This document shows, one piece after another, positions 1,854 through 22,519 of a DNA stretch of 43,604 nucleotides (within the stretch, counting starts at the first letter, position 1; each line of letters starts with the position of its first letter). This stretch comes from a bacterium (GTDB lineage Bacteria; Zhuqueibacterota; Zhuqueibacteria; Zhuqueibacterales; Zhuqueibacteraceae). The stretch is taken from assembly GCA_044869275.1 (NCBI GenBank), contig JBIOXB010000073.1, forward strand, positions 1 through 43,604, in the 5' to 3' direction. A program made the position numbers and the translations under genes. A model generated the notes under the pieces. That model searched no databases. It was not told the origin of the DNA and saw nothing but the letters and a program-made list of their open reading frames with translations.

Positions 1854-2522
1854 TCACAACCTCGTCACTCCTTCGATGCTCACTTGCACCGAATCCGCTC
1901 CCGGTTCTCCCGGCGAGAGCGCGCGAAAAGCGGTGGCGAAAACCGTTGCCGATCCGGAAAGGCCTTCGACGCGCCAGGGCTGCTGGTAGGGCGGGGAATT
2001 ATCTACGCCCAAAAGACTATCCCCCACGCGGAACTCGACGCGCTCGATGCCATTGGGATGGGTGGCCAGCGCCTCCACAATGACAACGCCGACACCGGGA
2101 ATGAATGCACCGGCTGCCGGCTTGACTATTTTTACGGTGGGGCGTTCGAGGGCGATAACCGAAAGCGTAACCGAACCCTCGGCTTCTCCATCCCTGTCAT
2201 CGCGAACCTTGACTGTGATTTTATAATCGCCAGCCAGGGCGGGCGTTGACCAACGCACGTGGCTTCCGGTCGTGGAGGAGAGCGTACCTCCTGCGGCGCT
2301 CCAGGTATAAGCGAGAGCGCTGCCTTCTGGATCGTGAGCCTCTACTTTTATGGTCGTCGTGTCCGCCGGGAAAAGGGGATGGCGCAGAGCGGAAATCCGA
2401 TCGATCACCGGTGCTTGGTTGGCTTGGATCAGCTTATTCAACTCATCGCAACCGAATAAAAGACTGAGCGCAAGCAACGCGAGCCAGGCCAGTTTAAGGG
2501 GGCGAATCAGCCTTCTCTCCAT
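1854..2522 (-). CDS. Lipoprotein with two Ig-like domains (PKD-like + bacterial Ig-like)
   Basis: Lipobox LLFGC. NQAPVI..EAHDPEGSALAYTWS..GDYKITVKVRD, then PTVKIVKP..GIERVEFRVGDSLLGVDNSPPYQQPW. Confidence 0.8.
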   Translation of the reverse strand: MERRLIRPLKLAWLALLALSLLFGCDELNKLIQANQAPVIDRISALRHPLFPADTTTIKVEAHDPEGSALAYTWSAAGGTLSSTTGSHVRWSTPALAGDYKITVKVRDDRDGEAEGSVTLSVIALERPTVKIVKPAAGAFIPGVGVVIVEALATHPNGIERVEFRVGDSLLGVDNSPPYQQPWRVEGLSGSATVFATAFRALSPGEPGADSVQVSIEGVTRL

Positions 2523-2528
2523 ATCTCT

Positions 2529-3296
2529 TCATTCCGCCAATGCTGCTTGCAGGACTTCCTTGCCAAGATCAGTGTTGTGCTCTATCATGACTGCTGCCTG
2601 CAAGCGTGCCGAATCGCGCACGCCAAGCAGGCTTGCCTCAAATCGGACGGATCTGGTTTCGCCGGCGGCGATGCCGCTGAAAATCTCCGGCGAAAAAACC
2701 TTGCGAACCACATGGTGGTGCCCGGTGGGACCCAAATCTTCCCACACCATGGCCTGCACGGCAAATGCCGAGAGACCGTTGTTGCCGAGCGGGGCGAACG
2801 TGGCGTCGATCTCGATGGTCGTCGCCAGAATATTTTTCCTTGCTTCGATGGTCAAATAGGCGATTTCGCTGTGTGCGGTTTGCAGGGCGCCACGATAACG
2901 CGTCGAGGCGTTGCGCGCGTCCGAGGCGCCTTGCAAGCGGAGGGCCGAGCCATTGAAAAATACGTCGGGAACGCCACGATCCGCTGCCGCCAAATCCCGG
3001 TAGCGGTCTGCGCTTTCCGGCAAGGCGTGGGCGTCGGCATAATTCGCGCTCGGCAGATGATGTTCCACGATGAGAATCTGATCCGCAGAGAAGGCGGAGG
3101 ACAAACTGTCCAAGGCCGTTAGTGCAAACGGGCTGAAAGGCGTTGCGTCGTTGACAAACGCTTCAACAAGAGTAACGCGCTGCCGCTCGCTCCGTGGATT
3201 TCTGGGATCGAGGAGATTATTTCTCTCCAATGCCTCGCATGCGCACAGCAGCAGGAGACCACCGCACAGGCCAAAGTGTAGTTTTCGAATCAACAT
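2529..3296 (-). CDS. Omp28-like thioredoxin-fold lipoprotein lacking CxxC
   Basis: Lipobox LCAC. RVTLVEAF, EHHL, GVPDVFFNG (cis-Pro loop) and HHHVVRKV match the Omp28 pattern. ATG at 3296 lies 5 bp after the upstream stop. Confidence 0.7.
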   Translation of the reverse strand: MLIRKLHFGLCGGLLLLCACEALERNNLLDPRNPRSERQRVTLVEAFVNDATPFSPFALTALDSLSSAFSADQILIVEHHLPSANYADAHALPESADRYRDLAAADRGVPDVFFNGSALRLQGASDARNASTRYRGALQTAHSEIAYLTIEARKNILATTIEIDATFAPLGNNGLSAFAVQAMVWEDLGPTGHHHVVRKVFSPEIFSGIAAGETRSVRFEASLLGVRDSARLQAAVMIEHNTDLGKEVLQAALAE

Positions 3297-3301
3297 TCTT
3301 G

Positions 3302-4240
3302 TCAAAAGTGCAAACAAACGCCGAGGCGTACGCCGCCCTGGTCAGCAAAGAAGGTCATTTCTTGCATCTGCCAAGGCCTCTCTGGCGGCGCCACGCTGGC
3401 AAAGACTTGATTTTGCTCCGAGCGCTCCTTCAACCAGAAATTGGCGCTGGCGATCGCCAATGCGCCAGTGGCAATGGCCAGAGCATTGCGGGCATTGCGG
3501 AAGTCATGGGCACGATCAAAATACTTGTCGAACTCTTCCAAGCTGGTGGCGGACTGATATTGCTGGTAGGCGTCTTGCGAGATCACATGCGTCACGCCGG
3601 TAGCCACTGCAGTCACGGCGGTGGCCAGCAAAAACCATGAGGTGGGATAGCTTTTCACGCGCAGACTTTGCCGGTATTGGCCCTCACCTTTTAGATTGAA
3701 CAAAATGTTTGCCGCCAGCAAACGCACCATGTCCTCGATGACTTCGCGATCGCGCCCAATCACTTTTTCACCGCGCACTTGCGCCGTCTCTACTTTGAGA
3801 ATATGGCAATCGATTCGCAAGCGTGAGCTGCCGGTCGCGCTGATCTCGCCGGTTAAGAGATACTGCGCCCCCGCCAGTTGCCCAAGCGTTTGCGCTGTTT
3901 TTTCATCAATTACTCCGGTTTGCCCCAGCGCGTGCTCCTGCAAAATCACATCCAGTTTTTGGCGTTCCACCACCGCTATGCCATTGCTGGTTTGAGAAAG
4001 CTCGGTTTTCAGCATCTCCGGCACGCTCTTTTCCAGCACATCAAGATTGAACAACCCACTGTTGTTCTTGAAATCCAAGACCGCAACGGTGATGGTGGCG
4101 GAATCCGGCGCAGCGAGCGGGAAAACTTGGATCTTTCCGTGTAGATCTGGCACAAGGGTTATATAGAATGCCACCACCAGGACAGCAAACGTGAGGCGAG
4201 AAACCAGATCATGCAATGGCCGCATGGTTATTTCTGGCAC
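3302..4240 (-). CDS. CsgG/HfaB-family protein with C-terminal hydrophobic helical hairpin
   Basis: Signal peptide. TVAVLDFKN, VVERQKLDVILQEHALGQTGVIDEKTAQTLGQLAGAQYLLTGEI. Two hydrophobic segments near the C-terminus. Confidence 0.8.
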   Translation of the reverse strand: MPEITMRPLHDLVSRLTFAVLVVAFYITLVPDLHGKIQVFPLAAPDSATITVAVLDFKNNSGLFNLDVLEKSVPEMLKTELSQTSNGIAVVERQKLDVILQEHALGQTGVIDEKTAQTLGQLAGAQYLLTGEISATGSSRLRIDCHILKVETAQVRGEKVIGRDREVIEDMVRLLAANILFNLKGEGQYRQSLRVKSYPTSWFLLATAVTAVATGVTHVISQDAYQQYQSATSLEEFDKYFDRAHDFRNARNALAIATGALAIASANFWLKERSEQNQVFASVAPPERPWQMQEMTFFADQGGVRLGVCLHF

Positions 4241-4300
4241 GATAAACGAGTAAGTGAGCGAGCGCGGGAAAGCTCATGCAAAATGTTTCCAGCAAATCCC

Positions 4301-5872
4301 TCAATCCAACCCCGGCGCAGCTGGTGCGGCGCTTCCCTGCAAGCGCCGCAACTCATCAAAATGCATTTTCGCTTTGGCAAATTCACCCAAACGGCGGTAG
4401 TTGCGAACCAGCAGCTTGTGCAGATTGATGACTTCATCCGACTCGAGCTGGGTAACGAGTTTGTAGGCTTGTTCCGCGTCCTGCACCGCCTGTTTGGGAT
4501 CGGACTCGGCGAGCGCGGCCATGGCAAAATAGCTTTTGCCGCGGCCCGACCACGGTATCATGGCCGATTGCATGAAATAGGTGTAAGCCAGCTTGCTATC
4601 GACTTGCATTTTTTCATTGCCCATGTTCAAACACATCGTGCCGTAGGTGTCAAGATAAGTTTGGTTGGCTTTTTCGACCGGAGCGCCGCTGGCATCGTGC
4701 GGAATGCTTTCCACGATTTTAAGCATGCGTTCGCACGCCTCTTCTTGCCGCTCGAGCTGGGAAAAATCGAGAATCGCAATATTGCGGCCGATCTCGAAGC
4801 GCGCGCGGTCGGTGCGCAGCTTGGGCAGCATTTCCTGGTACACGGCCGAGGCCGAGGCAAACTCCCCACGCGTTGACCGCGCCGCTGCCGTGTCCCGCAA
4901 AACCGTGCCGAGGATTTGACCGCCGTCCCAATCCAGCCATGCGAGATTGTTTTGCACGGCGTTGCGATTTGCCGGCACGCTGGTGAGCGTGAGCGCGCGG
5001 CGAAAACTGGCATAGGCCTTTTCTTCGTTGAACAATTTGATCGCGCTCAAGCCTTGATAATAAACTGAAAGAAACAAGAGATTCGAATCAACCGCCGCCG
5101 CCACCGGTAGCGTGGCATACTGAATGCGGCTTTCTTTCACCTCGGCGGAGGCCAGCAATTTCTGCTCGCATTTTTCAAAATTATCGAGCGCCGGTTGCCA
5201 GGTCTGACTCGCGAAATAATTCTCGCCCAGGTGAAAATAGTGGCCATATTCACCCGGCTCGAGGCGCACCAAGGTTTCCCACAGGGCAATGGCGCGGGTG
5301 TAGTTGTTTTTATCCGCCAGCCGGTCGCCCAGTACGCGGTAGACCGCCGCCAGCAATGCGCGCGTTTGCACACTGTAGGGGTTCAGTTGCAACGCCCTGG
5401 AGAGCGCAGCCTCGGCTTCCTGCAAATAAGCAAGCGCTTGCTGCCGGGCGCGCTGATCTTGTGTGGCGACATATTGCTGCACGAACGGTGTGCCCTGCTG
5501 AACTTTTTGATAACCTTCGCGTGTCGCTTTCGACGCGGCCGCCGAATCCGCAGCCGAGACCTGAATCGGTTTCGCGGCGGCACGATCCAAGAGCGACAAC
5601 AATGAATCCGCATAGGCGCGTTTCTGCGTCGCCTGCACGACCCATGTTTGCGCTTGCTTTTCTTCTTCCAAGGAAACAAAAAGCTCCTGCGCCAGCGAGT
5701 CTGCATGCGCGGCGGTCAAAGGCGTCACTCCTGGAGGGACGCGCACTGAGTCGAAATTGCGCGCGACGGGACGAGAGGAGCTGCAACTTGACAACAGAAT
5801 AGCCGTGAGGCCCGTGACCGCATCGGCGCGCCAGCGGCGCTGCATGCGTTGTACTATCTTCTTCATAAGCAT
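4301..5872 (-). CDS. TPR-repeat lipoprotein (paralog of 6669-8153)
   Basis: Lipobox LLSSC. TPR signatures ALSRALQLNP and LEPGEYGHYFHLGENYF. Confidence 0.8.
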   Translation of the reverse strand: MLMKKIVQRMQRRWRADAVTGLTAILLSSCSSSRPVARNFDSVRVPPGVTPLTAAHADSLAQELFVSLEEEKQAQTWVVQATQKRAYADSLLSLLDRAAAKPIQVSAADSAAASKATREGYQKVQQGTPFVQQYVATQDQRARQQALAYLQEAEAALSRALQLNPYSVQTRALLAAVYRVLGDRLADKNNYTRAIALWETLVRLEPGEYGHYFHLGENYFASQTWQPALDNFEKCEQKLLASAEVKESRIQYATLPVAAAVDSNLLFLSVYYQGLSAIKLFNEEKAYASFRRALTLTSVPANRNAVQNNLAWLDWDGGQILGTVLRDTAAARSTRGEFASASAVYQEMLPKLRTDRARFEIGRNIAILDFSQLERQEEACERMLKIVESIPHDASGAPVEKANQTYLDTYGTMCLNMGNEKMQVDSKLAYTYFMQSAMIPWSGRGKSYFAMAALAESDPKQAVQDAEQAYKLVTQLESDEVINLHKLLVRNYRRLGEFAKAKMHFDELRRLQGSAAPAAPGLD

Positions 5873-5888
5873 TTTGTTTGTGTTTCTT

Positions 5889-6590
5889 TCATTCGCCTGC
5901 TTTGATAAAAACCGTATCGCGCTTGGTTTGCTCGATGTAAATCACATCGTAAATGGGTTTGTCAACGAACACCGTATCCGTGCGCGTGTAAAACAGTAAA
6001 TCATGCTTGTATCTGAAAGAGCGGGTCGTGTCTTGCAGTGCCTTTTTGTCGCCGAATCCCCAAATCTTCAAAGCCGCAATGCCTTTCACGTCGTCGAATT
6101 CGAAAAAGAGGCTCAGCTTCTTGCCCTTGATTTGGTAGATTTCTTCTATCATCCGCACCAACCCGGCGTGCATTTCCCGCGCCACGGGGAATTCCTTCTC
6201 GCGCACTTCGATTTGGCCGTATTTGTTCTTCGCGCCAATAACCTCGATGAAGCCGGTGCGCTTCCAATTGCGCATGACGTCCAGCGCGGTCTCCGCCTGG
6301 CTCAAATTCACCAGCTGGTCGGAAGGATAGACCTTGAGAATGTCCTTGTCGTCAAAGCCGTTTTCATTCATGTCGAACACTTCCATGCTGTCGATGCGAT
6401 CCTCGCTAATGAAGTATTGCTCGACGAAAAACTGAATGGTTTGGCGATCTTTGATTACCGCGACCGGCAACGCCTTGCGCGAAACGATTACTTCTTTATC
6501 GGACTGCGCCGCAGCCGTTTGCAGCAGGCCGGCTGCCAGCACCAATGCTGCTCCTGGCAATCTGGCTGGGAAGATTGAATAAAAGCTCAT
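5889..6590 (-). CDS. Secreted hypothetical protein with a possible Ca-binding DxNxNG loop
   Basis: Signal peptide ending AAAQ, the DMNENGFDDKD loop and an upstream AGGAG RBS. Confidence 0.75.
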   Translation of the reverse strand: MSFYSIFPARLPGAALVLAAGLLQTAAAQSDKEVIVSRKALPVAVIKDRQTIQFFVEQYFISEDRIDSMEVFDMNENGFDDKDILKVYPSDQLVNLSQAETALDVMRNWKRTGFIEVIGAKNKYGQIEVREKEFPVAREMHAGLVRMIEEIYQIKGKKLSLFFEFDDVKGIAALKIWGFGDKKALQDTTRSFRYKHDLLFYTRTDTVFVDKPIYDVIYIEQTKRDTVFIKAGE

Positions 6591-6668
6591 ATTCTCCTGA
6601 CCTGTTTAGTGTTTTTCATGTGGACGTGCCGGTCCTGGTTGCATGCCACATGCCATGGGGAATGCTCA

Positions 6669-8153
6669 TTACTTCACCGCGCGGAGCGTGTCAAAATAGA
6701 ATTTGGCTTTGTCCATTTGATTCTTGCGGCGGTAACTGTCGATCAAAAGCCGGTAAAGTTTTTTCAACTGTTCACTATTCAATTGGTAGGACAAGGCCAA
6801 TGCATTTTCGCCGTCGCGGATGGAAAGATCGGCGTTGGAGTGGGAAAGTTCGGCCATCTGCAAATAGCTTTTGCCGCGTTCTTTCCAATTGATCGCCGCG
6901 GCGCGCGCGAAGTATTCATAGGCCACCCGCCGGTCCACCCGCAGCGTGTCAATGCCTAAATTGTAGCACATCGCCCCGTAATTGGCGAAATCCTGGATGT
7001 AGGTGGTGTCCAGGGGCGCGCCTTCCGCATCTTTAGGAATCCTTTGCAGCGCTTCGTCCAAGCGGGCGACGGCTGACTCTTTGCGATGCAGTTGCTGGTA
7101 TTCGATATCAGCGTAATCCCAAATAATTTCATCACGCGCGCGCTTGGTTTTCAAGGTCTCGTTCAACATTTTTTCATAAAGCTGAACCGTGTCGGTATAG
7201 CGGCCTTGTGCCACGAGCGCAGCGGCGGAGTCGCGGTAAACCGAGGCCAAAATATTGCCTGCGTCCCATTTGATCCACCGGATATCTTCGGCAATGCTGG
7301 CCAAAATCGTGGGGGAATTCACAAAGTTTCTCGCGCGCTCGAGATTTGACAGCGCTTGCTTGTCGTCAAAACTCTTGATGGCGCATTGTCCTTGGTAATA
7401 AATCGCGCGGAACAGTGTGAGGCTGTCCAGCGTTGCCTCCGGCAACAATTGGGGATTCCACAATCGCCGGTCGTTGACTTCGGTGGAAGCGAGCAGAATC
7501 TCTTCCGTCTTCTTGAAATTCTTCCAGGCTTCTTCCCATTGTCGTTGCGCATATTGGCATTCGCCCAGATTGTAGAAATGATGATATTCCCCTGGCTCCT
7601 GGCGCGCCAGCTCGGCCCAGATTTGTGCGGGTTGATCGAAAGACATCGCGCTTGGGAAGCGCTCGGCAAGCAGCTTGTAGGTGGCAGCCAAAAAATGTTT
7701 GGTGCGGAGCTGGAAGGGATTTAGCCGCAGAGATTTTTCCAGATGCTGGCGCGCCTCTTGCAAGTGATAGCTGGCTTGAATCTCGAGCTGGCGCTGGCGA
7801 ACATTGTGCGTGGTTGAACTCTGGCCATTTGAAGCAGTGGCATGGGCGGCTTCGTTTTGGTGGGCTGAATCGGCCGTAGGTGACAACGCCTGCTTGCCCT
7901 CTCTGCGCAAAAGCACCAGCAGTGAATCACAGGTGCGGAAATGCTGCAGCCCTTGCTGGCTCAACACTTCCGCCTGGTGCTCTTGTTTTTTAGCGACGAA
8001 CATGCGCGCCGCCACGGAATCAGCGCGCGCCAGCACTTTCGTCGAGACGCCGCGCGCATTGGAGCTCCCCTTCGAGCCGGCGCAACCAAATGCAAAAAAA
8101 GCCATCACCGCCCATGACAGTGGAACGACTCTTTCAAAGTTGAATGCCTTCAT
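6669..8153 (-). CDS. TPR-repeat lipoprotein (paralog of 4301-5872)
   Basis: Lipobox FAFGC. LEKSLRLNP and QEPGEYHHFYNLGECQY. The ATG overlaps the upstream TGA (ATGA at 8150-8153), which implies translational coupling. Confidence 0.8.
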   Translation of the reverse strand: MKAFNFERVVPLSWAVMAFFAFGCAGSKGSSNARGVSTKVLARADSVAARMFVAKKQEHQAEVLSQQGLQHFRTCDSLLVLLRREGKQALSPTADSAHQNEAAHATASNGQSSTTHNVRQRQLEIQASYHLQEARQHLEKSLRLNPFQLRTKHFLAATYKLLAERFPSAMSFDQPAQIWAELARQEPGEYHHFYNLGECQYAQRQWEEAWKNFKKTEEILLASTEVNDRRLWNPQLLPEATLDSLTLFRAIYYQGQCAIKSFDDKQALSNLERARNFVNSPTILASIAEDIRWIKWDAGNILASVYRDSAAALVAQGRYTDTVQLYEKMLNETLKTKRARDEIIWDYADIEYQQLHRKESAVARLDEALQRIPKDAEGAPLDTTYIQDFANYGAMCYNLGIDTLRVDRRVAYEYFARAAAINWKERGKSYLQMAELSHSNADLSIRDGENALALSYQLNSEQLKKLYRLLIDSYRRKNQMDKAKFYFDTLRAVK

Positions 8154-9862
8154 TTCTTCTTGTTGTTGTCCCACCAGGAAAGAAAAATGTTGTAAAATTG
8201 CGAAGTCTCCTCCCGCGTCGGGCTGTTTTCAAGCATCGTGAGCGAAGAGACGATACGATCTTCATCGCGCGACGCCCGGCCCTTGCTGAGATAAAAGCTC
8301 TTTTTGCGAAAACCGGTATCTCGCAGCATGATGGCATTGCCGCTGTGTTCCTCTACCATTAGAATCCCAATATCCTGGGAGAACTCATTGCACAAAATAT
8401 AAAGATCATAATTCACCGGGGCCGTCGTGAGGCTGACGTTGGCCGTGAGATCGCCCGGCCGGTAACGCAGGTAATGCTTGAGCACGGGCGAAAGCTCGGA
8501 ATGGTTCGATTTCAACCATTCGATCAATTCCAGAAAGACTCTATTGAGATCAACGGTCTCCAGATTTTTTTCCTTGACCTCGACTTTATTCGTGCCAGCC
8601 GCCTCGCCCTTGCGCTCCACCGCAGGCTTCAGCCCCGTGCCGCTCCCATTACCCAGGCCAGGTCCCGAACCCACTCCTCCTCTGCCCGGGTCCTCGCCAT
8701 AGCCGCCGCTGCCGCCGGAACCGCCACCGGTCCCGGTTCCCCCACGCGTTCCGCCACCACCACCACCATAGCCGACTTTGGTAGCCGCTAAGTCCGCGGT
8801 ATAACCCGTGGCACTCCCACTGGACGAGGCAGTCGGCAACCCGACCCCGGTGGGATTCTGATAATCTGGAGCGTTTTTGTCGGCTAGGATGATGCTCCCA
8901 ATATCGAGCTCGGGCAGAGCGGAAGCTTGCAAGGATGAAGTGATGCGCTGTGGCGGCGCCAATCCCGGGGTGGAGGGGCGTCCCAGTTGCGCGATTTCTT
9001 TCAGCCGTTCGATTGCCACCATGGGGACGTAGTTTTCAGGAGTGTTGATAGGCCCCGGCTGGCCGGGCGCGGGAGCGCCTGGCGCTGCGGGTTCCGTAGC
9101 AGCGCCTCCACCCGCACGTCTGCGAGCGGAACGAATTTCCGGAACAATTTTGGGCTCGATCTCTACATACTTGAAAATCGTTACCGTTTGGGGGTGTTCG
9201 CCTTCTTCCAGAGTTGACCAGTAAACCAGTACTCCCGCGAGATGCAGAACCGCAGCAATGGCCAGGCCGCGTGAAACATTTTTCTGATAAATTCTGTGGA
9301 GCTCTTGGCGGCCATAATCTGTCAAAAAATAAAAACCCTCGAACGAAATGGGCTGAAACTGTTCTCGCACCGCCTGCACAAATTTCGCCCAGGAGAAACG
9401 CGGAGTTTCTGGTGCCCAATCAAGTTCAAGGAGTGCCCGCGCTCGGGCCGGAAAAGTCGAGGCAGCAGCGAGAGCCGCAGGCTGGGTGGCGAGCGCATCC
9501 GCTGACGCAGCGGTGGCCAGCCAAGCGTGCAAAGTGTCGACCGGTATTTCGGCGGCCCGTGCAAATTTCCAGTTCGTGAGCTTGCCTTCTTCCCAGAGGT
9601 AACGCTGCACGATAAAGTTTTTGAAATTTTCACTGTACGTGACCACGCCGGCCTTTTCGGTCATCGCCTCGAGATGCGCGAGACGAAACCGCAAGACGTC
9701 CATTGTGATTTGGTCTTCACGCGAACGGCCCCGGGGCCGCGATTCCGGCGCGGCAGGCTGGGAAGACCAGTGCCTGCCGAGCCACCTGAAGAGACTGTTC
9801 TTAAAGCGGCGCAGCGAATAAGATTGTGGAGGCGTTTTCATCAGCTTGTCCAGAGGGAACAA
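8150..9862 (-). CDS. Inner-membrane protein: N-terminal HTH-like domain, TonB-type TM anchor, Pro/Gly-rich linker, unrecognised C-terminal domain
   Basis: YSENFKNFIV..FARAAEIPVDTLHAWL (HTH-like). DYGRQELHRIYQKNVSRGLAIAAVLHLAGVLVYW (TonB-like anchor with His). Long P/A- and G-rich tracts. Confidence 0.7.
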   Translation of the reverse strand: MFPLDKLMKTPPQSYSLRRFKNSLFRWLGRHWSSQPAAPESRPRGRSREDQITMDVLRFRLAHLEAMTEKAGVVTYSENFKNFIVQRYLWEEGKLTNWKFARAAEIPVDTLHAWLATAASADALATQPAALAAASTFPARARALLELDWAPETPRFSWAKFVQAVREQFQPISFEGFYFLTDYGRQELHRIYQKNVSRGLAIAAVLHLAGVLVYWSTLEEGEHPQTVTIFKYVEIEPKIVPEIRSARRRAGGGAATEPAAPGAPAPGQPGPINTPENYVPMVAIERLKEIAQLGRPSTPGLAPPQRITSSLQASALPELDIGSIILADKNAPDYQNPTGVGLPTASSSGSATGYTADLAATKVGYGGGGGGTRGGTGTGGGSGGSGGYGEDPGRGGVGSGPGLGNGSGTGLKPAVERKGEAAGTNKVEVKEKNLETVDLNRVFLELIEWLKSNHSELSPVLKHYLRYRPGDLTANVSLTTAPVNYDLYILCNEFSQDIGILMVEEHSGNAIMLRDTGFRKKSFYLSKGRASRDEDRIVSSLTMLENSPTREETSQFYNIFLSWWDNNKKK

Positions 9863-9878
9863 TCATAGTCCTCAATAA

Positions 9879-11780
9879 TTACGGATTCAAATGCACGGTT
9901 GCCTGAATCTGCTGCGGTAAATTGGCTGGAAGCTGCTTCAGCACTTTTTGGTAAATGCGCTCCGGCCGGCGATCCACCACGAGTTTTCTTTTGGGCGAAC
10001 GATAGGTGTTGCCGTCTGCCGATTTCCAGGCGAGATAGTAATAATAATTGCCGGCATCAGGATAGCCCCCGTCTTTTACTTTCCAATCCCACACCAAACG
10101 TTGCAAGATTTGCGGCTGATCTTTTTTGTTCTTGCGCCTGGCAACGGTCGAATCAAACCAGACTTTGCCGGCGGCGTCCTCAATTAGGAGCGTGCCCGAA
10201 ACCGGGCCCCAGCGCACGGTTTCATCCAAATTCAAACTGAAATCAAATACCGTCGCCGGCGCGCTGAATTTGCGCTCGAAATCTTCCGTGCGCACGGAGT
10301 CGGCACCGAGATAATTCTGCTGCTGCACCTTGGCCGAATCGGCCACGGCCACGAGCAAATTATCGGTGATCGGACCGTACAGCTCAATGTAGCGCAGAAT
10401 CAAGTGCGTGCGCCGCGCATCCGGCGGCACGATTACGGTGGTGCGAAAACCAGGATCGCGCAGGCGCTCGGCCAGGTTGCGAAACGCCTCACGATAACTC
10501 TTGGTGTGGTTCTTTTCCATTTCTTTCACCAGCGCCAAACTGTCGCGCGGCACACTGAAACGGCCCGTCTGTTTTTCCTCTGCGGCGATTTTATCCAGCA
10601 AGCGCGCGGCGCTCATGCGCGCGCTGCGTGTCGGAACCGGCGGTGAGGACAGATAAATATTGTCCGGTGTTTCAGGACGCGGGCTGCCGGTGGAATAAAA
10701 AATCGCGCGCGGCAATTCCGCACGCTCTTTGACGCTGATTTGCGCATCGATTTCGCGGAAAATGTGGGTGTCGACGATGGCGACAGTATCGACAGAAGAT
10801 CGCACGGTGAAGGCATCAGCCAAACTAATGGCCGGCGGCAGCGGCACGTTGGTTTGCACCCATTCCGGTTCGTAGGGCAACGCCCGCTTTTTGAAGTTGA
10901 AAATCAAGCCCAGCTCGTGCGAGCCGTCACTGGCGAGGTTGAGATCGTTGATGGGATAATTGTAACGATAATTCACGCTCACACCGCTGATCACGTGCAA
11001 CTGACCCTCGAAGGCCATGGCCTCCGCGCTGTAGCCGACTTTGAGATAGCCGCGCTCCAGCGACAACGCTTGCAGGAAAATTTGTGAAGAGAGTTCTTCG
11101 TTTTCGTGGAAGAAAGACAGGCCGGCGGCAAACTGGCTGAACCCGACCACCGCTCCCGCGCTGAGATAGCGCTCCAAACGCACTTCGCTGTTTTCTTGGA
11201 AGGCGATATTCGGGCGGTTGATGTTGTTTGCGCTCGCGCCGAGCTTGAGATAGCGGTTCACGTTGACGAAGATGCCCGCACCCAGGTTGAAAAGCGCCCA
11301 CTCCGAGGTTTGTTGCAGCAGCGGATCGTTCAAATCCGCACCCTCGAAATTCGAAAACGAGCGGTTGAGCACGCCGATGCTCACTCCGGCGCTCACGCGT
11401 TCCCCGATTTTGGTGCTGGCGATGGCATTGAGGGCAAGATCATTCATCACCGGGGTGTTGAGCACTTGGCCCTGAATGCCCCAGCCAAAATTCTTCTGGC
11501 CAAAGAGTGTTCTATCCCTGGTGGTGAGCCCGAAAAAATTATTGCGGAAGGAAAAAGTGTTCTCACCCACGCCGAGATGCAAAGCTTGCAGACCGGCGGT
11601 GAAAAGTGGATCCTGAAATGGCACAGCCGCAGGATTGGCCAAATTCAAACGCGCGTCCAGCATATCCGCGGGATTCGGCGTGATCAACGTTTGCGCGCGC
11701 AAAGCCAAGGAAGGCAGCAGCGCTGCCGCAAAGGTTAAAAGGCTTGCAAGGCCCTTGTACAGTCGTTTCTTTCCTTTCAT
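9879..11780 (-). CDS. PorP/SprF-family T9SS outer-membrane beta-barrel with long C-terminal extension
   Basis: Signal peptide. NPAA, DPLL, LGASANNINRPNI and YNYP..DGSHELGLIFNF are PorP/SprF motifs. The C-terminal WDWK..DAGNYYYYL is FlgD/Ig-like. Start set at MKGKK with an AGGA RBS. Confidence 0.8.
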   Translation of the reverse strand: MKGKKRLYKGLASLLTFAAALLPSLALRAQTLITPNPADMLDARLNLANPAAVPFQDPLFTAGLQALHLGVGENTFSFRNNFFGLTTRDRTLFGQKNFGWGIQGQVLNTPVMNDLALNAIASTKIGERVSAGVSIGVLNRSFSNFEGADLNDPLLQQTSEWALFNLGAGIFVNVNRYLKLGASANNINRPNIAFQENSEVRLERYLSAGAVVGFSQFAAGLSFFHENEELSSQIFLQALSLERGYLKVGYSAEAMAFEGQLHVISGVSVNYRYNYPINDLNLASDGSHELGLIFNFKKRALPYEPEWVQTNVPLPPAISLADAFTVRSSVDTVAIVDTHIFREIDAQISVKERAELPRAIFYSTGSPRPETPDNIYLSSPPVPTRSARMSAARLLDKIAAEEKQTGRFSVPRDSLALVKEMEKNHTKSYREAFRNLAERLRDPGFRTTVIVPPDARRTHLILRYIELYGPITDNLLVAVADSAKVQQQNYLGADSVRTEDFERKFSAPATVFDFSLNLDETVRWGPVSGTLLIEDAAGKVWFDSTVARRKNKKDQPQILQRLVWDWKVKDGGYPDAGNYYYYLAWKSADGNTYRSPKRKLVVDRRPERIYQKVLKQLPANLPQQIQATVHLNP

Positions 11781-11827
11781 ATGTTCTCTTCCTGTTTGCG
11801 AATATTCCTGAGCGAGAGAAATCTGCC

Positions 11828-14800
11828 TTACCTCACCACGCCAACGTGTCCGCTGCCCAGAGCTTTGTCGCCATCCTGCAAAATCCACATGTAAGTATGC
11901 GGAGAAACCAGCCGCCGTTCTTGATCTTGGCCGTTCCATCTGATGGTTTTGGTCTCGGCATTGCCTTCGAGCGTCGCAATCAACTGGCCGCGCATGTTGA
12001 AGATTTTGATGACCGGCTCGAATACTTCTTCGATGTCGGGAAACTCGAAATCGGCGAAATCATTGTAACCGTCGCTGTTGGGTGTAAACACCTCCGGCCT
12101 GACGCGCACGCCGCGATCGGGCCGGCCACGGCCGATGCCGGAGAGCTGCACGGTGCGGGGATCGCGGGTTTGCCGGCTTTTCACCAGCACCTCATTGAGG
12201 TGCGGGCCGGAAACCTCAGGTTTGAATTTGACCTGTACCAACACCGAGTCAAGTGACTTCAATTCCGGCAGCGGAAAAGCGGGCGAGATAATTTCGTACT
12301 CGCTGGTATGATCCAGCGCGGCCTCGACGTTTCTCAAATCCAGCGGCCCGCTGTTGATGATGTGAAATTCCCGCGTGGTGCTGTCCCTCCTGATGTACAG
12401 CCGGCCGAAATCCAAATTCTCAGGATAGACTCTCAAATCTGCAACCAGCTCGACGATTCCTCTTCCCATTAATTGCACCACATGCAGCGTGTCCCGGAAG
12501 GCATCGCTGACGAGCACGAAGGAACTGCGCAACTCACCGTCTCGGCTGGGTCTGAAGGTGATCTGCACGTCCTTGGTCTCACCCGGCTCCATCCGCAAAG
12601 GCAGACGCGGGAGTAATTCTATGGTGAAATCGGACTGAGGCTGCTGGACGCTCAAGATCGTCAACGGCGCTGTGCCGACGTTCTTGATGGCGTCGTAAGC
12701 CGTCACGCGGATGGACCGGCCGACGCGCTCACCTTCGAGGTTTAACGGCGACTGCGCGAAAATGGCTGCCGCCACACCGTCGCCACGCACAGCCACGCCA
12801 AATGTGGAATCTTCGCGAGCATTTCCGTTGCGGATTTTGGCAATCGGCACGTCCAGGGTGTCACCGAACAGACCAGGCTCCGGCGGCGCGAAACAGACGG
12901 AGATCGAGGCCTTGCCCCCGGGCAAGATCAACAAATCCAGACCTTGTCCTTCGACTTTAAAAGCGGTGCTCCGGCGCAGCGCAGCCGAGGCCACGGACAG
13001 ACTGTCACGCGACCGATTTTCGATTAACACGAACATGCAGCTGTCCTGTCCCACCCGCACTTTGCCAAAATTGAGTGGATTCGGGCCTACACCGAGGATC
13101 GGCGCCGAGCCGTTGCCCTGCAACTGCACCGCTTTCGGATTTTCATCGCCGTCATTGCTGGCGATATTCAATATCGCGAGACGCGCGAGCGAATCCGCGG
13201 GTGCAAACTTGATGGTTAACCTTGCAGTATCACCCGAGGCGAGAGAGAAGGGCACCGCGGGTGTGGCGGTGAGAGTGAAATCGTTCGGATGCTGCCCGGC
13301 GAGTGAGAATGAATGCACGCGCAGCGAGCAAGCACCGGTGTTGTGCAGCGTGTAAATCCTCTCGGCGAAACTGCCCACAGACGTTGATGGAAAAAGCAGC
13401 AGATTGGCGCCCGCGATGTTCGCCTGGCCCTTGTTCCCGGACAAAACAATCACGTAGGGATTTTCGTCCGGATCGTTGCTAACAATGGACAGCGTGGCGT
13501 GTGCCGATTGCGCCACAGCCGGATCGAACGAAACCGTCAGGGTAATCTTCTCGCCCGGCATGAGAGTATCGGGCACTGCTTGCGTTGTCGTATAAGCTGG
13601 ATCGGTGAACGTGAAGGCAGTCACGAACAGGGTGGCATCGCCTTCATTCGAGAAGATCAGTTCGCGCGTTGTTTTTGCGCAATCCGCGCCGAAGCTCAGG
13701 GTGTCGCGCTCAACAGCGATATCCGGTACTTTGGGCGGAACGGGCAGGCCATTGCCGATCAAACGCACAGTGAAGGGGTTGTCCGAAGCTGGACCGGGAT
13801 CGTTGTTGTAGACCAGCAGGTTGGCAACGAACAGGCCCACAGCCGGCGGGGTAAATGAAACAGGAATGCCCAGGCTGTCACCCGGCGGAATGATTCGACC
13901 GGTGAAATCGCCCACCACGGCGAACGGTTCCTGCGCCAGGATTTTGGGCAGATCCTTGTTCGCCGCGAGATCTTTGACCACAATCGCGGAATCCACCACC
14001 AGATCACAAACGCCCACGTTGCGGACAAAAACCGTGTCGATCTCTGTTTGATTCACCGGCGTCGGCGGAAAGAGGTGTTCTTCCGGCCCGGCGATTTGGC
14101 CCGAAACTGCTTCGCCTGAAACCGGAATCAGCACCGGCGGCACGTCGGGATTCTGCCAAACGATGCGGAGCGTGTCCGTGACCCTTTCCAGCGTTTGCGG
14201 CTTGAACCCGATGGTCAACGCCTGGCTCTGGCCCGGCAGAACTTGAAAATCGGTCGTCGGCTCGACGCTGAATTCCGGACGGCCCACGGTAAAGCCGAGC
14301 GAGGCTGCGACGACTGCGACCGAACCATTGTTGACGATTTCCACCACTTGCGTGCTGTCGCCGCCCAAACACACGGAGAGAAACGCCAGCTGAGGAGGTC
14401 TGGGAAAGACATTGACTTGTTGCCCTGCGCCGTGCAGCACGATGCGCACCGGATTTGAATCCGGTGCATTGTTCTCCACCAGCAGCGTCGCGAAATGCTC
14501 GCCGGCGCGGAGAGGACTAAAGGTGACCGGCAGATTGAGTGTGTCGCCAGAGCGCAGAGTGGACGGCAGGCCGGAGACATCCACGGAAAAAGATGAAGAA
14601 TCGGCGCCAGTGAGGCGCGCGGCGCGAATGTCCAAATCACATTGCGCGGCGTTCCAAATCAAAGCGCTGGCGCCTCGCGATTGCTGCAGCGGCACCACAC
14701 CAAATTCCACGGTATCGACTGCCGCGACTTGCGGTGACAAAACTTTTCCCGGCACGACAATCTGATGCGGACTGCCTGGGGCATTGGACCAAAAGGTGAC

Positions 14801-17260
14801 GCGCAATTCGAAATCGCGCGGCGGCTGGGTGATTTCTATGGGGATGGTTGCGCTGTCGCCCGGCGCGATAATGAGCGGCACAGAAGCTGGATGCGACACG
14901 AATGAAGATGACGTCGATGTTGTTTGTTGCAAGAACGCGATCGCGACTCTGAAGGAATCGACGCGCAGCTCACAAGACGTGCTGGTGTTAAAAATCACGA
15001 TTCTGGTTTCACCCGATCGGCCGAGACAAACTTCGAGCCGCGGCGGCCTGGCCGCCAATGCGATCTGCGGCCGTTCGCCCTTGCCGGTCAATGCCACCGT
15101 TTCCGCACCGGCATTGCTTTGTAATGCCAACGTCCCCCTGGAGGTGCTGGTGTCAGCAGGCGTGAAGCGAATCGGCACAAAGAGCGCTTGATTGGGCAGC
15201 AAGGTGAAAGGGAAAACCAAGCCGGTGGTATCGATCGCAAAAGCAGGGTTGGAAATAGTTGCGCTGTTGATGACGATATTGACCAGGCCGAGGTTTCTGA
15301 TTTGAACATAATCGCGAACGGTGGTATCCACGCAAGCGGCGAGCGTTAATGCTCGCGGCGTCACTTCCCAGCGCGGTTGGGGTGTGGTGCCGGTGCCGCG
15401 CAATGCCACTGCCAGTGGATTCGTGTCGGTATCATTGCTGAAAACTTGCAGCGTGGCGTTGCGTTCACCCACGGCTTTCGGATTGAAAGTGACGGGCAAG
15501 AGCAGACTATCGCCGGCACCCAGTTCCACGGGAAAATTGCTTGGTACCACGGAGAAGTCGGCGGCATGCGCGCCGGTGATGCGCACCGAGTCGACGCGCA
15601 GCACACAGCTTCCTACTGCACGAATGGCGACCCTGTCCAAGCGGCTCATGCCCACTTCTGTTGCCGGGAAAATTAAGCTCGCCGGCCCGGCAATCTGCGG
15701 CGAGATGCCTTCACCGCGCAGAATAATGGCGAACGGATTATGATCGGGATCGTTGCTGGAGACAAACAGCGTATCTTGAAAAACGCCCACAAGGTTTGGG
15801 GCAAAACTAACGGAAATAATCAAGCGTTCGCCCGGCTGCAGACGCGCTGCGCGGCCTTCAAATTTGAATACCGGACTGTTCAGCTCGAAAGCGGATATGA
15901 TCAACTCCGCAGAACCATCATTGGAAAGAGTATCCTTGAGAACGGCTTCGGTATTCAAACAAACCTGGCCGAATAAGACCGGATTGGGGCTCGCCACCAG
16001 CCTCGCGGGTTTTTGGCGCACGGCATAAATTTTCCGCAAGCTGGGGACGTACATCGTGCCGTTCGAGCCGAAGGCGGGAGAGTATTTGCATTGCACCTCA
16101 GGCAGGCGCCACAGAATTCGCTTGTCCGGCGCGAGCGCGAACAAACCAAAATCCGAACGCTCATTCACAATAAAAATGTTTCCTTGCGCATCGACCACCG
16201 GCATGGTTTTGTAGCGCGAAGTGCCAAGATCAAGAGGCCAACCGGCCTTGGGTCTGCCTTCCGGCGTCAAAGCGAGCAACAAGCCGCGATCGAATCCGGC
16301 GAAATAAATCGTGCCGTCAGGGCCGAGGGCGGGCGGGGAAGGAGGACCATAAGTTTGGTCGTAAGCATGGGCCCAAACTTCGTTGCCAGTTTCGGCGTTG
16401 AGCGCAACCACAAGCGCATTCGTGCGGGACCCGGCGTACACCAAGTTGCCATTCGGACTTATCACCACCCACGCCACTTCGCCGAGTCTCGCAAGACTCC
16501 ATTTTGCGATTCTGTTGCAAGACGGGTCAAAAACATAAATGTTATTTCCGGCAGGGGCATAGACTCTGCCGCTCGCACTCAAGGCAGGTGTTGCTCCCGG
16601 CTTTTCACCATCAAAATTTGCGGTGCACAGCAAACTGCCGGAAGAATTGAAGACGTAGAGCCGCCCGTCATCGACGGGGACATAGAGATGTCCGTCATTG
16701 TCCACATTCGCCGCCGCGCTGACAAAGCCACCAACCGCTGCGCGCCAGCGCAAGTTGCCGTTGAGATCGAGCGAGAGAAAACTGCCTTGCTGCGTGCCGA
16801 CGTAAATATTGCCATCTTTGCCGATCACCGGCGGCGACGAGAAGGTCTCGTTGCCGTTTCCTCCCTGCCGGGCCCGGCTGAATTGCCATTTCTTGGAGCC
16901 ATCCGCATTCAACGCGTAGACAAATTCGTCTCCTCGGCTAATGAAGATAATGCTGCCCTCTGGCCCGACCACGGGCGATTCAATTTTCTCTGATCCGATC
17001 GGAACTGTCCATTGCAGTTCGGGGAGTAGAGGCCCATTGACGGCGGCACGGCCGTTCAACGCGGCGTTGAAACGGTAGAGTGGCCATGAAGATTGGGCAA
17101 GCGCATTTTGCGCAAGGCCCATTCCGGCCAGAATGAGAACGCACAGCATGGCTTGGCTGTGCAGGTGTGGCGAGAGTGTCGGACGAACCCCGGCTGCTTT
17201 TTTGCATCTTCCCTGAGCAAAAAGAACTGGCATCACGATTTTAGTCGAGGCTTGAACCAT
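11828..17260 (-). CDS. Large surface adhesin: PQQ-like beta-propeller, 12 ASH/choice-of-anchor-D Ig repeats, type B (gliding-motility/CHU_C) T9SS CTD
   Basis: SWPLYRFN..GR start, repeated SxPxxGxDGxIY..LxA..G..W blades, repeats ending SNDxDxNP..LxGxG, and C-terminal VFTPNSDGYND..IFNMRG..WNG..SGHVGVVR. The start codon is uncertain. Confidence 0.9.
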   Translation of the reverse strand: MVQASTKIVMPVLFAQGRCKKAAGVRPTLSPHLHSQAMLCVLILAGMGLAQNALAQSSWPLYRFNAALNGRAAVNGPLLPELQWTVPIGSEKIESPVVGPEGSIIFISRGDEFVYALNADGSKKWQFSRARQGGNGNETFSSPPVIGKDGNIYVGTQQGSFLSLDLNGNLRWRAAVGGFVSAAANVDNDGHLYVPVDDGRLYVFNSSGSLLCTANFDGEKPGATPALSASGRVYAPAGNNIYVFDPSCNRIAKWSLARLGEVAWVVISPNGNLVYAGSRTNALVVALNAETGNEVWAHAYDQTYGPPSPPALGPDGTIYFAGFDRGLLLALTPEGRPKAGWPLDLGTSRYKTMPVVDAQGNIFIVNERSDFGLFALAPDKRILWRLPEVQCKYSPAFGSNGTMYVPSLRKIYAVRQKPARLVASPNPVLFGQVCLNTEAVLKDTLSNDGSAELIISAFELNSPVFKFEGRAARLQPGERLIISVSFAPNLVGVFQDTLFVSSNDPDHNPFAIILRGEGISPQIAGPASLIFPATEVGMSRLDRVAIRAVGSCVLRVDSVRITGAHAADFSVVPSNFPVELGAGDSLLLPVTFNPKAVGERNATLQVFSNDTDTNPLAVALRGTGTTPQPRWEVTPRALTLAACVDTTVRDYVQIRNLGLVNIVINSATISNPAFAIDTTGLVFPFTLLPNQALFVPIRFTPADTSTSRGTLALQSNAGAETVALTGKGERPQIALAARPPRLEVCLGRSGETRIVIFNTSTSCELRVDSFRVAIAFLQQTTSTSSSFVSHPASVPLIIAPGDSATIPIEITQPPRDFELRVTFWSNAPGSPHQIVVPGKVLSPQVAAVDTVEFGVVPLQQSRGASALIWNAAQCDLDIRAARLTGADSSSFSVDVSGLPSTLRSGDTLNLPVTFSPLRAGEHFATLLVENNAPDSNPVRIVLHGAGQQVNVFPRPPQLAFLSVCLGGDSTQVVEIVNNGSVAVVAASLGFTVGRPEFSVEPTTDFQVLPGQSQALTIGFKPQTLERVTDTLRIVWQNPDVPPVLIPVSGEAVSGQIAGPEEHLFPPTPVNQTEIDTVFVRNVGVCDLVVDSAIVVKDLAANKDLPKILAQEPFAVVGDFTGRIIPPGDSLGIPVSFTPPAVGLFVANLLVYNNDPGPASDNPFTVRLIGNGLPVPPKVPDIAVERDTLSFGADCAKTTRELIFSNEGDATLFVTAFTFTDPAYTTTQAVPDTLMPGEKITLTVSFDPAVAQSAHATLSIVSNDPDENPYVIVLSGNKGQANIAGANLLLFPSTSVGSFAERIYTLHNTGACSLRVHSFSLAGQHPNDFTLTATPAVPFSLASGDTARLTIKFAPADSLARLAILNIASNDGDENPKAVQLQGNGSAPILGVGPNPLNFGKVRVGQDSCMFVLIENRSRDSLSVASAALRRSTAFKVEGQGLDLLILPGGKASISVCFAPPEPGLFGDTLDVPIAKIRNGNAREDSTFGVAVRGDGVAAAIFAQSPLNLEGERVGRSIRVTAYDAIKNVGTAPLTILSVQQPQSDFTIELLPRLPLRMEPGETKDVQITFRPSRDGELRSSFVLVSDAFRDTLHVVQLMGRGIVELVADLRVYPENLDFGRLYIRRDSTTREFHIINSGPLDLRNVEAALDHTSEYEIISPAFPLPELKSLDSVLVQVKFKPEVSGPHLNEVLVKSRQTRDPRTVQLSGIGRGRPDRGVRVRPEVFTPNSDGYNDFADFEFPDIEEVFEPVIKIFNMRGQLIATLEGNAETKTIRWNGQDQERRLVSPHTYMWILQDGDKALGSGHVGVVR

Positions 17261-20800: not shown

Positions 20801-20973
20801 TTCGTCAGCCAAATAGGTTTCTTGAACGGAACCCTGTTTTCCTGGTTGCTGGTTTTCCGCGCATGCGCATTTTTCCTCTCGCTTGTGCGCGCGGATGAAG
20901 CCAGCCCGTTTAGGCTGAAAATAAAAAAAATGCCAATCACCAGCCTGCTCCCAGCCGGTACGGCCTTTCGCAT
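17863..20973 (-). CDS. Type A T9SS-CTD secreted protein with jelly-roll (MAM/InhA-like), CARDB-like and FN3-like domains
   Basis: Signal peptide. TEPNFD..IRLRFRFISD..WFLDDI, DQGRRVQVSW, DNLAPSVP, YAVTAVDMNGNPS, and C-terminal NYPNPFNPQTTIEF..PSGIYFYRL..KKMVLMQ. Confidence 0.85.
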   Translation of the reverse strand: MRKAVPAGSRLVIGIFFIFSLNGLASSARTSERKNAHARKTSNQENRVPFKKPIWLTNQAPSPALTNSRTTSAATILWEDDFEGSQAPWTPVASWTNTPVRSGNPDAGFVFGDHSGWARVDTIAQEPPSPKHAWRNDDNENTAIDLLISPIIHLPRSLDGEPLLKACVRFYLDLHAPDVEFEGNLQDFYYVRAGRATALWKFESVAPFSGSSHWALHQSPIEAQGAFNVQSIATPEINLAGAVNPALSFVQLYATEPNFDYCAVDLSTDQFATYKTLARYSGIRALYSSVALNLRNYAGKKIRLRFRFISDFGFSQPNARWFLDDIAVKDGTRVLFSDNGGDDGRTTMTKWGFAGGDAFIGLDFDKDAANPAALWVERDSTSIDRGSLNILDSAAGLVPGDSIRLAFHWVTNGSLAQGNGRGIFIDEIALEAITGVADDVAMIDLDVPFPNVEMMPAQQALVRVGNHGSHSQNAVPVRYRLDGGPALAPSPPLNFDLASASEGEGILNWKTPGAGIYTLSTQTELAHDTRRANDTLSVAPVVVYPHGIAELGYDDRFHQNGFVTGSKSLVSFTVNRDLRGGVQQYTLHQVKVDLFNGSNSRDQVRLVVATASNDTTVQTILFDGIEPVPARDFSSHVLQVNARDLTAERLVVLVDFSVSHGNARLLMDGGTRFTGHNFFFDGKRWSPSSLGRQIRARLSWLPGAKIILVRDLPADQGRRVQVSWFPSSSEAFSRNISHYALWRGVKNPGAADSNFRAIEVPSMPALYEYGIQNGKPGDRVVVAGNAAWDFLVRMPASPGLEAYSLAAPTLNDSNFTGMNYTAFMVTAYDGGRRFADAKIDSGYSVDNLAPSVPAGFTAARILANQRPAVRLQWRAVADEDLAHYALYKNGSVVLLAITTDLAFTDLAVTVGEMVSYAVTAVDMNGNPSARANVSLNITRLNERSQPVLPAVYELGNNYPNPFNPQTTIEFSLPLRGHVRLGVFNFLGQEIETLIDAEMPAGFHRTIWEAKAQPSGIYFYRLTVNDFRQIKKMVLMQ

Positions 20974-22296: not shown

Positions 22297-22375
22297 GTTT
22301 ACGGTATGATAGACTATGCCGGATTTGCAGCCACGCTCAAAACCGGTGATCTTCGAGCGGCTTCAAATCAAAAGC

Positions 22376-22438
22376 TTTTGAACACGGATTTGCTCTATCC
22401 GTCTTAATCCGCGCAATCCGTGTCATCCGCGTTCAAAA
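22376..22438. repeat. ATCCG short-period repeat in a hairpin
   Basis: ATCCG at 22397, 22407, 22416 and 22425. TTTTGAACACGGAT pairs with ATCCGCGTTCAAAA with one mismatch. Confidence 0.8.
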
Positions 22439-22519
22439 AAATAATCAGAAAACTTTCAAAAATGTATTCTGAACGTCTCGGCGTCGCTGCGTGCGCTCTT
22501 GGCGCTTGCGTCTTTCGGC

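Follow-up and report, generated by a model that had tools for sequence, protein, structure and literature searches.

A motor-less T9SS cargo-carrier cassette with a TonB-anchored, transposase-headed connector in a KSB1 bacterium

Introduction

How might a surface protein exported by a type IX secretion system (T9SS) be deployed when the genes around it include no motor? This question is raised by nine open reading frames (ORFs) at positions 1854-17260 of contig JBIOXB010000073.1 (assembly GCA_044869275.1), from a KSB1 bacterium of the family Zhuqueibacteraceae. The window analyzed here is this entire contig (43,604 nucleotides), to which all coordinates without a locus label refer; the nine genes, together with the features within and between them, lie on the minus strand. 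The host genome (G000) comprises 6.67 Mb, and G001 is a genome of the same genus. C* denotes the connector encoded by gene 3, and L and P numbers denote loci and proteins of relatives. In a preliminary description, the nine genes were taken for a single trans-envelope adhesin complex. The analysis reported here resolves them into two modules, namely, genes 1-6, which by sequence comparison constitute a motor-less copy of a conserved cassette maintained under purifying selection, and genes 7-9, a separate trio.

Results

A conserved cassette without its motor

Protein E, the secreted product of gene 5 (5889-6590), has no match in Pfam, NCBIfam, PDB (best E-value 0.15) or the Atlas, and is present in 41 of the 61 genomes of the class and in 18 of 18 family genomes, frequently as multiple copies. 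Comparison of 58 regions around E matches (one a duplicate, so that 57 were analyzed) and of the best 80 of 107 loci encoding the C-terminal domain of the connector (C-domain) revealed a recurring gene order: cargo, a PorP barrel with a C-terminal arm (extended PorP), ExbB (often with immunoglobulin-like (Ig) domains), ExbD, ExbD, connector (C), a tetratricopeptide repeat (TPR) protein and E, the core member. The conserved synteny that the preliminary description had proposed to look for thus exists for genes 1-6: judged by record names, the cassette is found in KSB1, Calditrichota and Rhodothermales, and in part, as motor-C-TPR-E only, in Gemmatimonadota. Of the 79 loci, among those of 99 non-redundant connectors, in which the downstream sequence is long enough, 77 contain E and 72 the TPR gene. 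Extended PorP and cargo accompany the same connectors in 73 and 69 of 81 loci, respectively, a denominator that takes in short loci where PorP was seen, so that these two rates lean high. The motor genes belong to the Pfam families MotA_ExbB and ExbD, with the ExbD Asp motif kept in 38/41 and 40/41 cases. Gene 4 (6669-8153) was assigned to the TPR lipoprotein family of the cassette by its repeats, lipobox (C24) and synteny, and gene 6 (4301-5872), a second TPR lipoprotein (lipobox C30), is its paralog (37-38%). C, TPR and E are correlated in their distances (0.90-0.92), which stems from common descent and is not counted as evidence; comparison of the TPR and E profiles yielded no match.

In the window, PorP runs straight into the connector across a junction of 37 bp (9842-9878), where relatives carry approximately 2.5 kb with ExbB(+Ig), ExbD and ExbD; the same junction is present in G001 (L031). 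Cassette-type ExbD was found in 17 of the 19 family genomes and is missing only in G000 and G001, each of which has one connector, and searching G000 with the cassette-motor profiles retrieved only weak matches to generic ExbB/ExbD. L116 represents an intermediate locus (PorP-C*-ExbB), and two other genomes (G005 and G017) encode C* alongside the native connector and motor genes. Between G000 and G001, the ratio of nonsynonymous to synonymous substitution rates (dN/dS) is 0.07-0.24 for all nine genes (within gene 3, 0.17 for the anchor, 0.165 for the N-terminal helix-turn-helix (HTH) and 0.03 for the C-domain); these values are rough, having been obtained by a simple counting method at dS of 1.0-1.5. 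Because they indicate purifying selection, decay of the nine genes was rejected. An assembly artefact was rejected as well: G001 shows the same PorP-connector junction, and similar proteins (P0041-P0044) are present in other data sets.

Several variants of the cassette were observed among the relatives. The E proteins of Gemmatimonadota (L152, L158, L170, L172, L176 and L178) are 590-800 aa long and contain repeated acidic loop motifs, with no PorP or cargo nearby. In L076, L078 and L223, a paralogous cassette lacks both ExbD genes, and a generic ExbB precedes a connector bearing another His anchor, possibly a third, separate rewiring. In the 1330-aa protein P0045, the connector C-domain occurs twice, following an N-terminal region that is unrelated.

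A TonB-type anchor on the connector

The connector C* (gene 3; 563 aa; 8150-9841) resembles a force transducer, with a single transmembrane (TM) helix (residues 189-207), a linker and a globular C-domain. Residues 175-232 match the N-terminus of the host TonB encoded at C243 (E-value 1.2e-5; 39% over 64 aa), the only significant match in the genome. This TonB-type anchor (9146-9319) comprises a YGxxEL lead-in, a TM helix with the motor-binding His, and the following strand; A-x-x-L-H replaces S-x-x-x-H, as in the host TonB. A hidden Markov model (HMM) built from three host TonB anchors scores C* at 20 bits. The TonB-shaped trans-envelope protein that had been proposed for this gene set is borne out, and its anchor is homologous to that of the host TonB. 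The 139-aa C-domain (8153-8569) is the conserved domain of the connector family (274 cluster representatives); it matches no family in Pfam or NCBIfam, TonB_C included, and is absent from the 11 TonB_C matches of the host. It is modeled as an alpha/beta domain with a six-stranded sheet and three helices (pLDDT 89.6). Its fold matches are weak, with none by Foldseek at E ≤ 0.001, a best VIA Z of 7.2 and no TonB or TolA C-domain among the fold matches listed, which does not imply a new fold. These comparisons indicate that gene 3 is a chimera in which the native N-terminus was replaced by a canonical TonB anchor headed by a transposase-derived HTH.

Among the 99 connectors, the TonB-anchor HMM scores are bimodal (ten at 20 bits or more, the rest at 0.8 or less), and L039 was added by hand as swapped from its alignment, for 11 swapped connectors. 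An ExbD gene lies directly upstream of 84 of the 84 full-length native-anchor connectors, compared to 0 of the 9 readable TonB-anchored ones; the other two swapped connectors are at contig edges, and four rows were set aside (two truncated at the N-terminus, two in which a generic ExbB adjoins a different His-bearing anchor). The His, absent from the native anchor, is kept in 9 of the 11 swapped anchors. On the C-domain tree, at least four changes are required for the ten HMM-scored swapped rows. The approximately unbiased test, performed on a 38-row subset after the first tree had been seen, rejected a single clade both for nine swapped rows (p = 0.0024) and for the four of the HTH type (p = 0.00013); for five swapped rows of the other subfamily, one clade was not rejected (p = 0.148). 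The non-clade pattern of the sequences would fit either repeated grafts or an old duplicate that gene conversion has kept similar.

A transposase-derived front end

The cytoplasmic HTH of C* (residues 38-112; 9506-9730) derives from a DDE-type transposase. It weakly matches HTH_Tnp_1, and residues 28-109 are 49% identical over 82 aa (E-value 7e-17) to a segment of a 705-aa rve-like ORF in G001, which is present there in two copies, each behind a clear rve transposase ORF; the rve match of the 705-aa ORF itself is weak (20-24 bits, cut-off 32.6). In L116, the transposase likeness spans 184 columns up to the anchor and therefore marks the fusion point. C* retains homology to the transposase and lacks the catalytic core, and no full transposase was found in G000. 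With 34 candidates scored per genome, the HTH was detected in at least 5 of the 167 genomes of the phylum, all in Zhuqueibacteraceae. In two of these, a GltG-like transducer has a tandem duplicate that begins with the same HTH-anchor front end. The HTH has no PDB match, and Atlas scores of 0.82-0.84 are leads only.

The HTH donor family is represented at L271:133-6867, where a two-ORF element (rve transposase of approximately 410-440 aa, then the 705-aa ORF) occurs twice. The GltG-like duplicates with the HTH and TonB-type anchor are located at L272:8132-9475 and L273:6097-7449.

Cargo and carrier

Gene 1 (11828-17149) encodes a type B T9SS cargo, likely an adhesin, with a PQQ-type propeller, 11 stretches of choice-of-anchor D/ASH Ig repeats and, at 11873-12097, a CHU_C C-terminal domain (CTD). 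This CTD scores 32.2 bits in Pfam (cut-off 27) and 29.7 bits against TIGR04131 of NCBIfam, below the cut-off of 35, and is the second-best CHU_C match in the host genome. Among relatives, the CTD is kept while the cargo body differs (FG-GAP, vWA, cohesin, Ig).

Gene 2 (9879-11780) encodes a PorP/SprF-like protein (PF11751, 52 bits, cut-off 22; TIGR03519 below cut-off) with a barrel at approximately 10896-11693 and a C-terminal arm of approximately 340 aa at 9882-10895. In the structure model (pLDDT 83.9), the Foldseek matches cover the barrel only and include chain F of the T9SS translocon entries 6h3i and 8gl6 (TM-score 0.54-0.56 by target), which we take to be PorV, as well as FadL. The arm, folded in the model and conserved in 45 homologs, is predicted to be periplasmic. 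No cysteine is present in the window PorP or in 28 of the 45 aligned homologs, so that the twin-Cys C-tail of the Bacteroidota carrier is lacking. With a type B CTD on the cargo, an adjoining PorP/SprF barrel and SprA in the genome, the cargo-carrier pair previously proposed for this non-Bacteroidota host is upheld, both CHU_C and PF11751 scoring above their cut-offs. A second PorP-like gene (726 aa) lies at C241:11164-13344 of G000; its C-terminus is OmpA-like by eye, and no cargo gene adjoins it.

Secretion and motor genes of the host

The inventory of the host genome, which had been called for, covered SprA, PorV, GldL, GldM, GldN and ExbB/TolQ. SprA scores 869.5 bits (cut-off 200) and is encoded in 61 of the 61 genomes of the class; the host also has 20 PorV-family genes above the cut-off and many CTD proteins. 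GldM was detected in 0 of the 61 genomes (the named controls were silent; the model did match, at E = 1e-11, in two of five other genomes). In the host, no GldL scored above the cut-off (best E-value 0.24), and no GldN match was obtained in a search that had no positive control. A possible T9SS outside Bacteroidetes has been noted (PMC5837995). Six generic ExbB/TolQ loci were found, two of them with GltG/AgmX-type transducers. The Ton operon at C243 has the order exbB-exbD-exbD-tonB-PstS-TPR, and homologs of its TonB occur in all family genomes (19 of 19); C212 holds the exbB-exbD-exbD-tonB genes in another order. Two loci of G000 (C50:10740-18920 and C211:49031-55199) resemble the Agl/Glt core, with a large TPR-like ORF, a small exported ORF, ExbB and a transducer with an AgmX/PglI C-domain.

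Layout of the nine genes

The co-orientation and order of the nine genes, their short spacing and the single ATGA overlap were confirmed. With likely starts at 17149, 11780, 9841, 8153, 6590, 5872, 4225, 3296 and 2522 for genes 1 to 9, the successive gaps are 47, 37, -4 (ATGA), 78, 16, 75, 5 and 6 bp; 993 bp follow gene 9, and approximately 600 bp precede the longest cargo ORF. Pfam and NCBIfam identify gene 1 as type B CTD cargo, gene 2 as PorP/SprF, genes 4 and 6 as TPR and gene 9 as Ig; gene 7 matches CsgG in part and gene 8 matches Omp28 weakly, and genes 3 and 5 fall in no family. Envelope signals are present on all nine products, as had been described: lipoboxes in genes 4, 6 and 9 (by pattern) and in gene 8 (LCAC at C20, missed by the pattern and read by eye), the TM helix of gene 3, and signal peptides in genes 1, 2, 5 and 7, read by eye with no predictor. 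A promoter scan (18 sites vs. 8.2 expected, with no minus-strand site in front of the cargo start) and terminator predictions, which were at chance level, were not used.

A separate downstream trio

Genes 7-9 had been considered part of a single nine-gene complex, an assignment that the comparative data contradict. Gene 7 (3302-4225) encodes a CsgG/LpoB/TolB_N-like domain protein; residues 47-135 align with positions 7-100 of the 210-position CsgG profile, and LpoB, FlgT_M and TolB_N match as well. With less than half of the profile covered and no lipobox, the features of a full CsgG pore are not present. Gene 8 (2529-3296) encodes an Omp28-like lipoprotein (24 bits, cut-off 150) with homologs in 25 of the 61 genomes of the class, and gene 9 (1854-2522) an Ig-domain lipoprotein (Big_7/Big_9; lipobox C25). 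At 19 other gene 8 loci, gene 7 precedes in 19 and gene 9 follows in 18, and the cassette TPR gene lies upstream in G001 only. Among 12 wider trio regions, five (L258-L262) are in a 3-deoxy-D-manno-octulosonic acid (KDO)/Lpt cluster, five (L251-L255) have varied neighbors, and in two the neighbors are not in view. In L258-L262, the trio is located between kdsA/kdsC and kdsD, ahead of lpxL-like, lptC, lptA and lptB genes (annotation checked in L261 and part of L262). The trio thus adjoins the cassette only in this genus, where it apparently landed downstream as a separate module, and may be a candidate for an undescribed lipopolysaccharide- or outer-membrane-related module. It is conserved throughout the class and, in distant relatives, sits within the cluster kdsB-pyrG-kdsA-kdsC-kdsD-lpxL-lptC-lptA-lptB.

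Elsewhere in the window, a type A CTD protein is encoded at 17863-20973, preceded by a 434-aa ORF without family and a 1254-aa ORF whose N-terminus has helix-hairpin-helix repeats (20992-26284), both of them 80% identical in G001. A 252-aa ORF at 102-860, in a lower-GC region (0.47), has a weak NAL1_N match and one paralog in the genome.

Discussion

How, then, might the adhesin be driven? With about even confidence, we propose that the motor-less cassette of genes 1-6 uses its TonB-anchored connector to draw on a housekeeping ExbB-ExbD-ExbD motor on behalf of the surface adhesin. By sequence, the starting point is a cargo with a type B CTD beside a PorP barrel, in a host with SprA. According to the literature, such cargo exits via SprA and remains attached to its own PorP-like carrier (PMC9143113), the C-tail of which is periplasmic; in Flavobacterium johnsoniae, the periplasmic C-tail of the carrier SprF links it to the energy chain (PMC12635249). 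By comparison with relatives, which combine ExbB-ExbD-ExbD with a connector whose anchor lacks His, this genus seems to have neither, its sole connector being TonB-anchored. TonB and TolA bind their motors via the TM helix, can be driven by one another's motors and still work after domain swaps, in which domain III sets the activity (PMC12204202). Because the motor-less copy carries a grafted TonB-type anchor, C* likely obtains proton-motive force via a housekeeping motor, and would dock on the Ton motors of C243 or C212. In the ancestral cassette, force would pass from its own motor through C to the TPR protein and E and on to the PorP arm, and in the window copy likewise from the Ton motor; the C-domain would grip the TPR/E layer and the PorP arm and thereby free the adhesin, shift it or put it under tension. 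The HTH of transposase origin, which would have come with the grafted front end, may add DNA binding.

Several observations weigh against this proposal. Seven of the 11 swapped connectors are in genomes that still hold the cassette motor elsewhere, or probably so, and therefore a swap does not always mean motor loss. The motor-binding His is missing in the swapped anchors of L039 and L070, in P0096 and in one GltG-like graft, so that some grafts may not couple to the motor. Phylogenetically independent pairs for the link between anchor and motor number only three; all are concordant, and the sign test is not significant (p = 0.25). The claim of motor absence is weakened by the state of the G000 assembly (94% complete, 255 contigs; G001 is 99% complete). 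Furthermore, extended PorP was found in 0 of 4 genomes with motor-connector-TPR-E (three from Gemmatimonadota and one from Rhodothermales), and the PorP link is accordingly not obligatory.

Alternatively, C* might be a membrane-anchored DNA-binding regulator of ToxR-like layout, in which the C-domain senses adhesin/TPR assembly and the HTH alters transcription, with no force involved. We consider this unlikely, although the HTH is conserved in eight aligned members and is under selection at the dN/dS given above, the same front end recurs on the tandem GltG-like duplicates, and C* persists at two loci that also have the native motor and connector, as expected of a regulatory copy. This alternative has to contend with seven swapped connectors of the other subfamily that have the TonB anchor without an HTH, with C* being the sole connector in this genus, and with the retention in the window of one HTH out of a seemingly larger transposase DNA-binding region. 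Still somewhat less probable is a passive tether that fixes PorP and adhesin to the envelope, in the manner of PorE in Bacteroidota. Anchoring by PorP-PorE, the latter a TPR lipoprotein, has been proposed for non-mobile type B cargo (PMC9143113), and the absence of cassette motor genes in G000 and G001 is compatible with such a role; however, none of the nine genes encodes an OmpA-type wall-binding domain that Pfam detects, and a tether leaves the TonB-specific anchor on motor-less copies in at least two subfamilies unexplained.

The cassette family could also be seen as a general energizer of T9SS export in lineages without GldKLMN, a possibility prompted by the ubiquity of SprA and the Gld results reported above. 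As a universal role, this is largely refuted and, in our estimation, very improbable: the cassette is not a general T9SS motor because E was not found in 20 of the 61 genomes, all of which have SprA. One of the 20 is G048, a single-contig, 100% complete genome with SprA and, apart from that, only weak CTD-like matches to extended PorP; in addition, two of the five Rhodothermales-type cassette genomes have weak GldM-like matches. Slightly less credible again is the original notion of a single Glt-like complex, for an adhesin or for motility, that unites all nine genes and includes a CsgG-type pore. The genes are tightly spaced, and all nine are in order and under selection in G001, but conserved linkage is refuted, with the trio adjoining the cassette at only one of 19 other loci (G001) and in the KDO/Lpt cluster of distant relatives, and with gene 7 a partial CsgG. 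The suggested Glt-like logic survives as architectural likeness and not as homology: no NCBIfam Glt model matches any of the nine genes at E ≤ 0.01, although the same models match C50 and C211 of the host, hhalign against a GltG-like protein gives a probability of 0.1%, and the Glt-like loci are on other contigs.

The cassette that, in our proposal, draws on the Ton motor shares parts with several known systems. With SprB-SprF of F. johnsoniae and PG1035-PorP-PorE of Porphyromonas gingivalis, it has in common a CTD cargo by a PorP/SprF barrel, SprA and PorV-family proteins, and a TPR lipoprotein nearby, and the C-terminal part of the carrier, like the SprF C-tail (PMC12635249), is a likely periplasmic handle. 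It differs in that the arm of approximately 340 aa contains no Cys and is hence unable to make the SprF-GldK disulfide, in that GldM, GldN and GldL were not found, and in that the OmpA domain of PorE is missing and the pair is linked to an ExbBD-type motor or TonB anchor instead. The Ton system of the Fibrobacteres-Chlorobi-Bacteroidetes (FCB) type (exbB-exbD-exbD-tonB-PstS-TPR) shares the layout of TM helix, Gly/Pro-rich linker and globular C-domain, the homologous anchor and, in relatives, ExbB with two ExbD; in contrast, the C-domain of C* is not TonB_C by sequence, the cassette includes no TonB-dependent receptor, the native anchor has no His and the cassette ExbB often carries a C-terminal Ig domain. 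The vWA force transducers by TPR, tolQ and two tolR genes (PMC12204202, section 8) similarly place a non-TonB C-domain in a cluster of TPR, ExbB and two ExbD, whereas the C-domain of C* is not vWA and is tied to T9SS cargo and PorP, with a front end exchanged among lineages. Finally, the Agl-Glt core (aglRQS, gltC, D, E and G; PMC3169522) likewise combines a TolQ and two TolR motor, a TonB-like transducer and TPR proteins, and has been duplicated and reused, but connector, TPR and E have no detectable homology to Glt families, and the true GltG/AgmX-type loci of the host are those at C50 and C211.

We found no account of the cassette, the anchor swap or a T9SS in KSB1 in the open-access literature searched, and the supplements of PMC12204202 may list such loci. 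As far as that literature reaches, the earlier view that this is not a described system holds, and the rewired, transposase-headed variant of the cassette is new. More broadly, and with rather more doubt than belief, we suggest that the cassette could be a fourth use of ExbBD-type motors, whereby a dedicated proton motor and a new connector pull a T9SS carrier's periplasmic arm so that adhesins are deployed or moved in those FCB lineages that lack GldKLMN. Within a single KSB1 family, it would have been repeatedly re-plugged into the housekeeping Ton motor by a TonB-anchor graft, once on a domesticated transposase fragment that also supplies force transducers with a DNA-binding head.

The same C-domain occurs with two types of anchor, and which of them it bears follows whether or not a motor adjoins, a natural experiment on motor specificity. 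The HTH also exemplifies the domestication of a bacterial transposase, here on envelope force transducers from two separate systems. For KSB1, where the T9SS pore occurs throughout the class without a detectable Gld motor, the cassette is a candidate energizer for one class of cargo.

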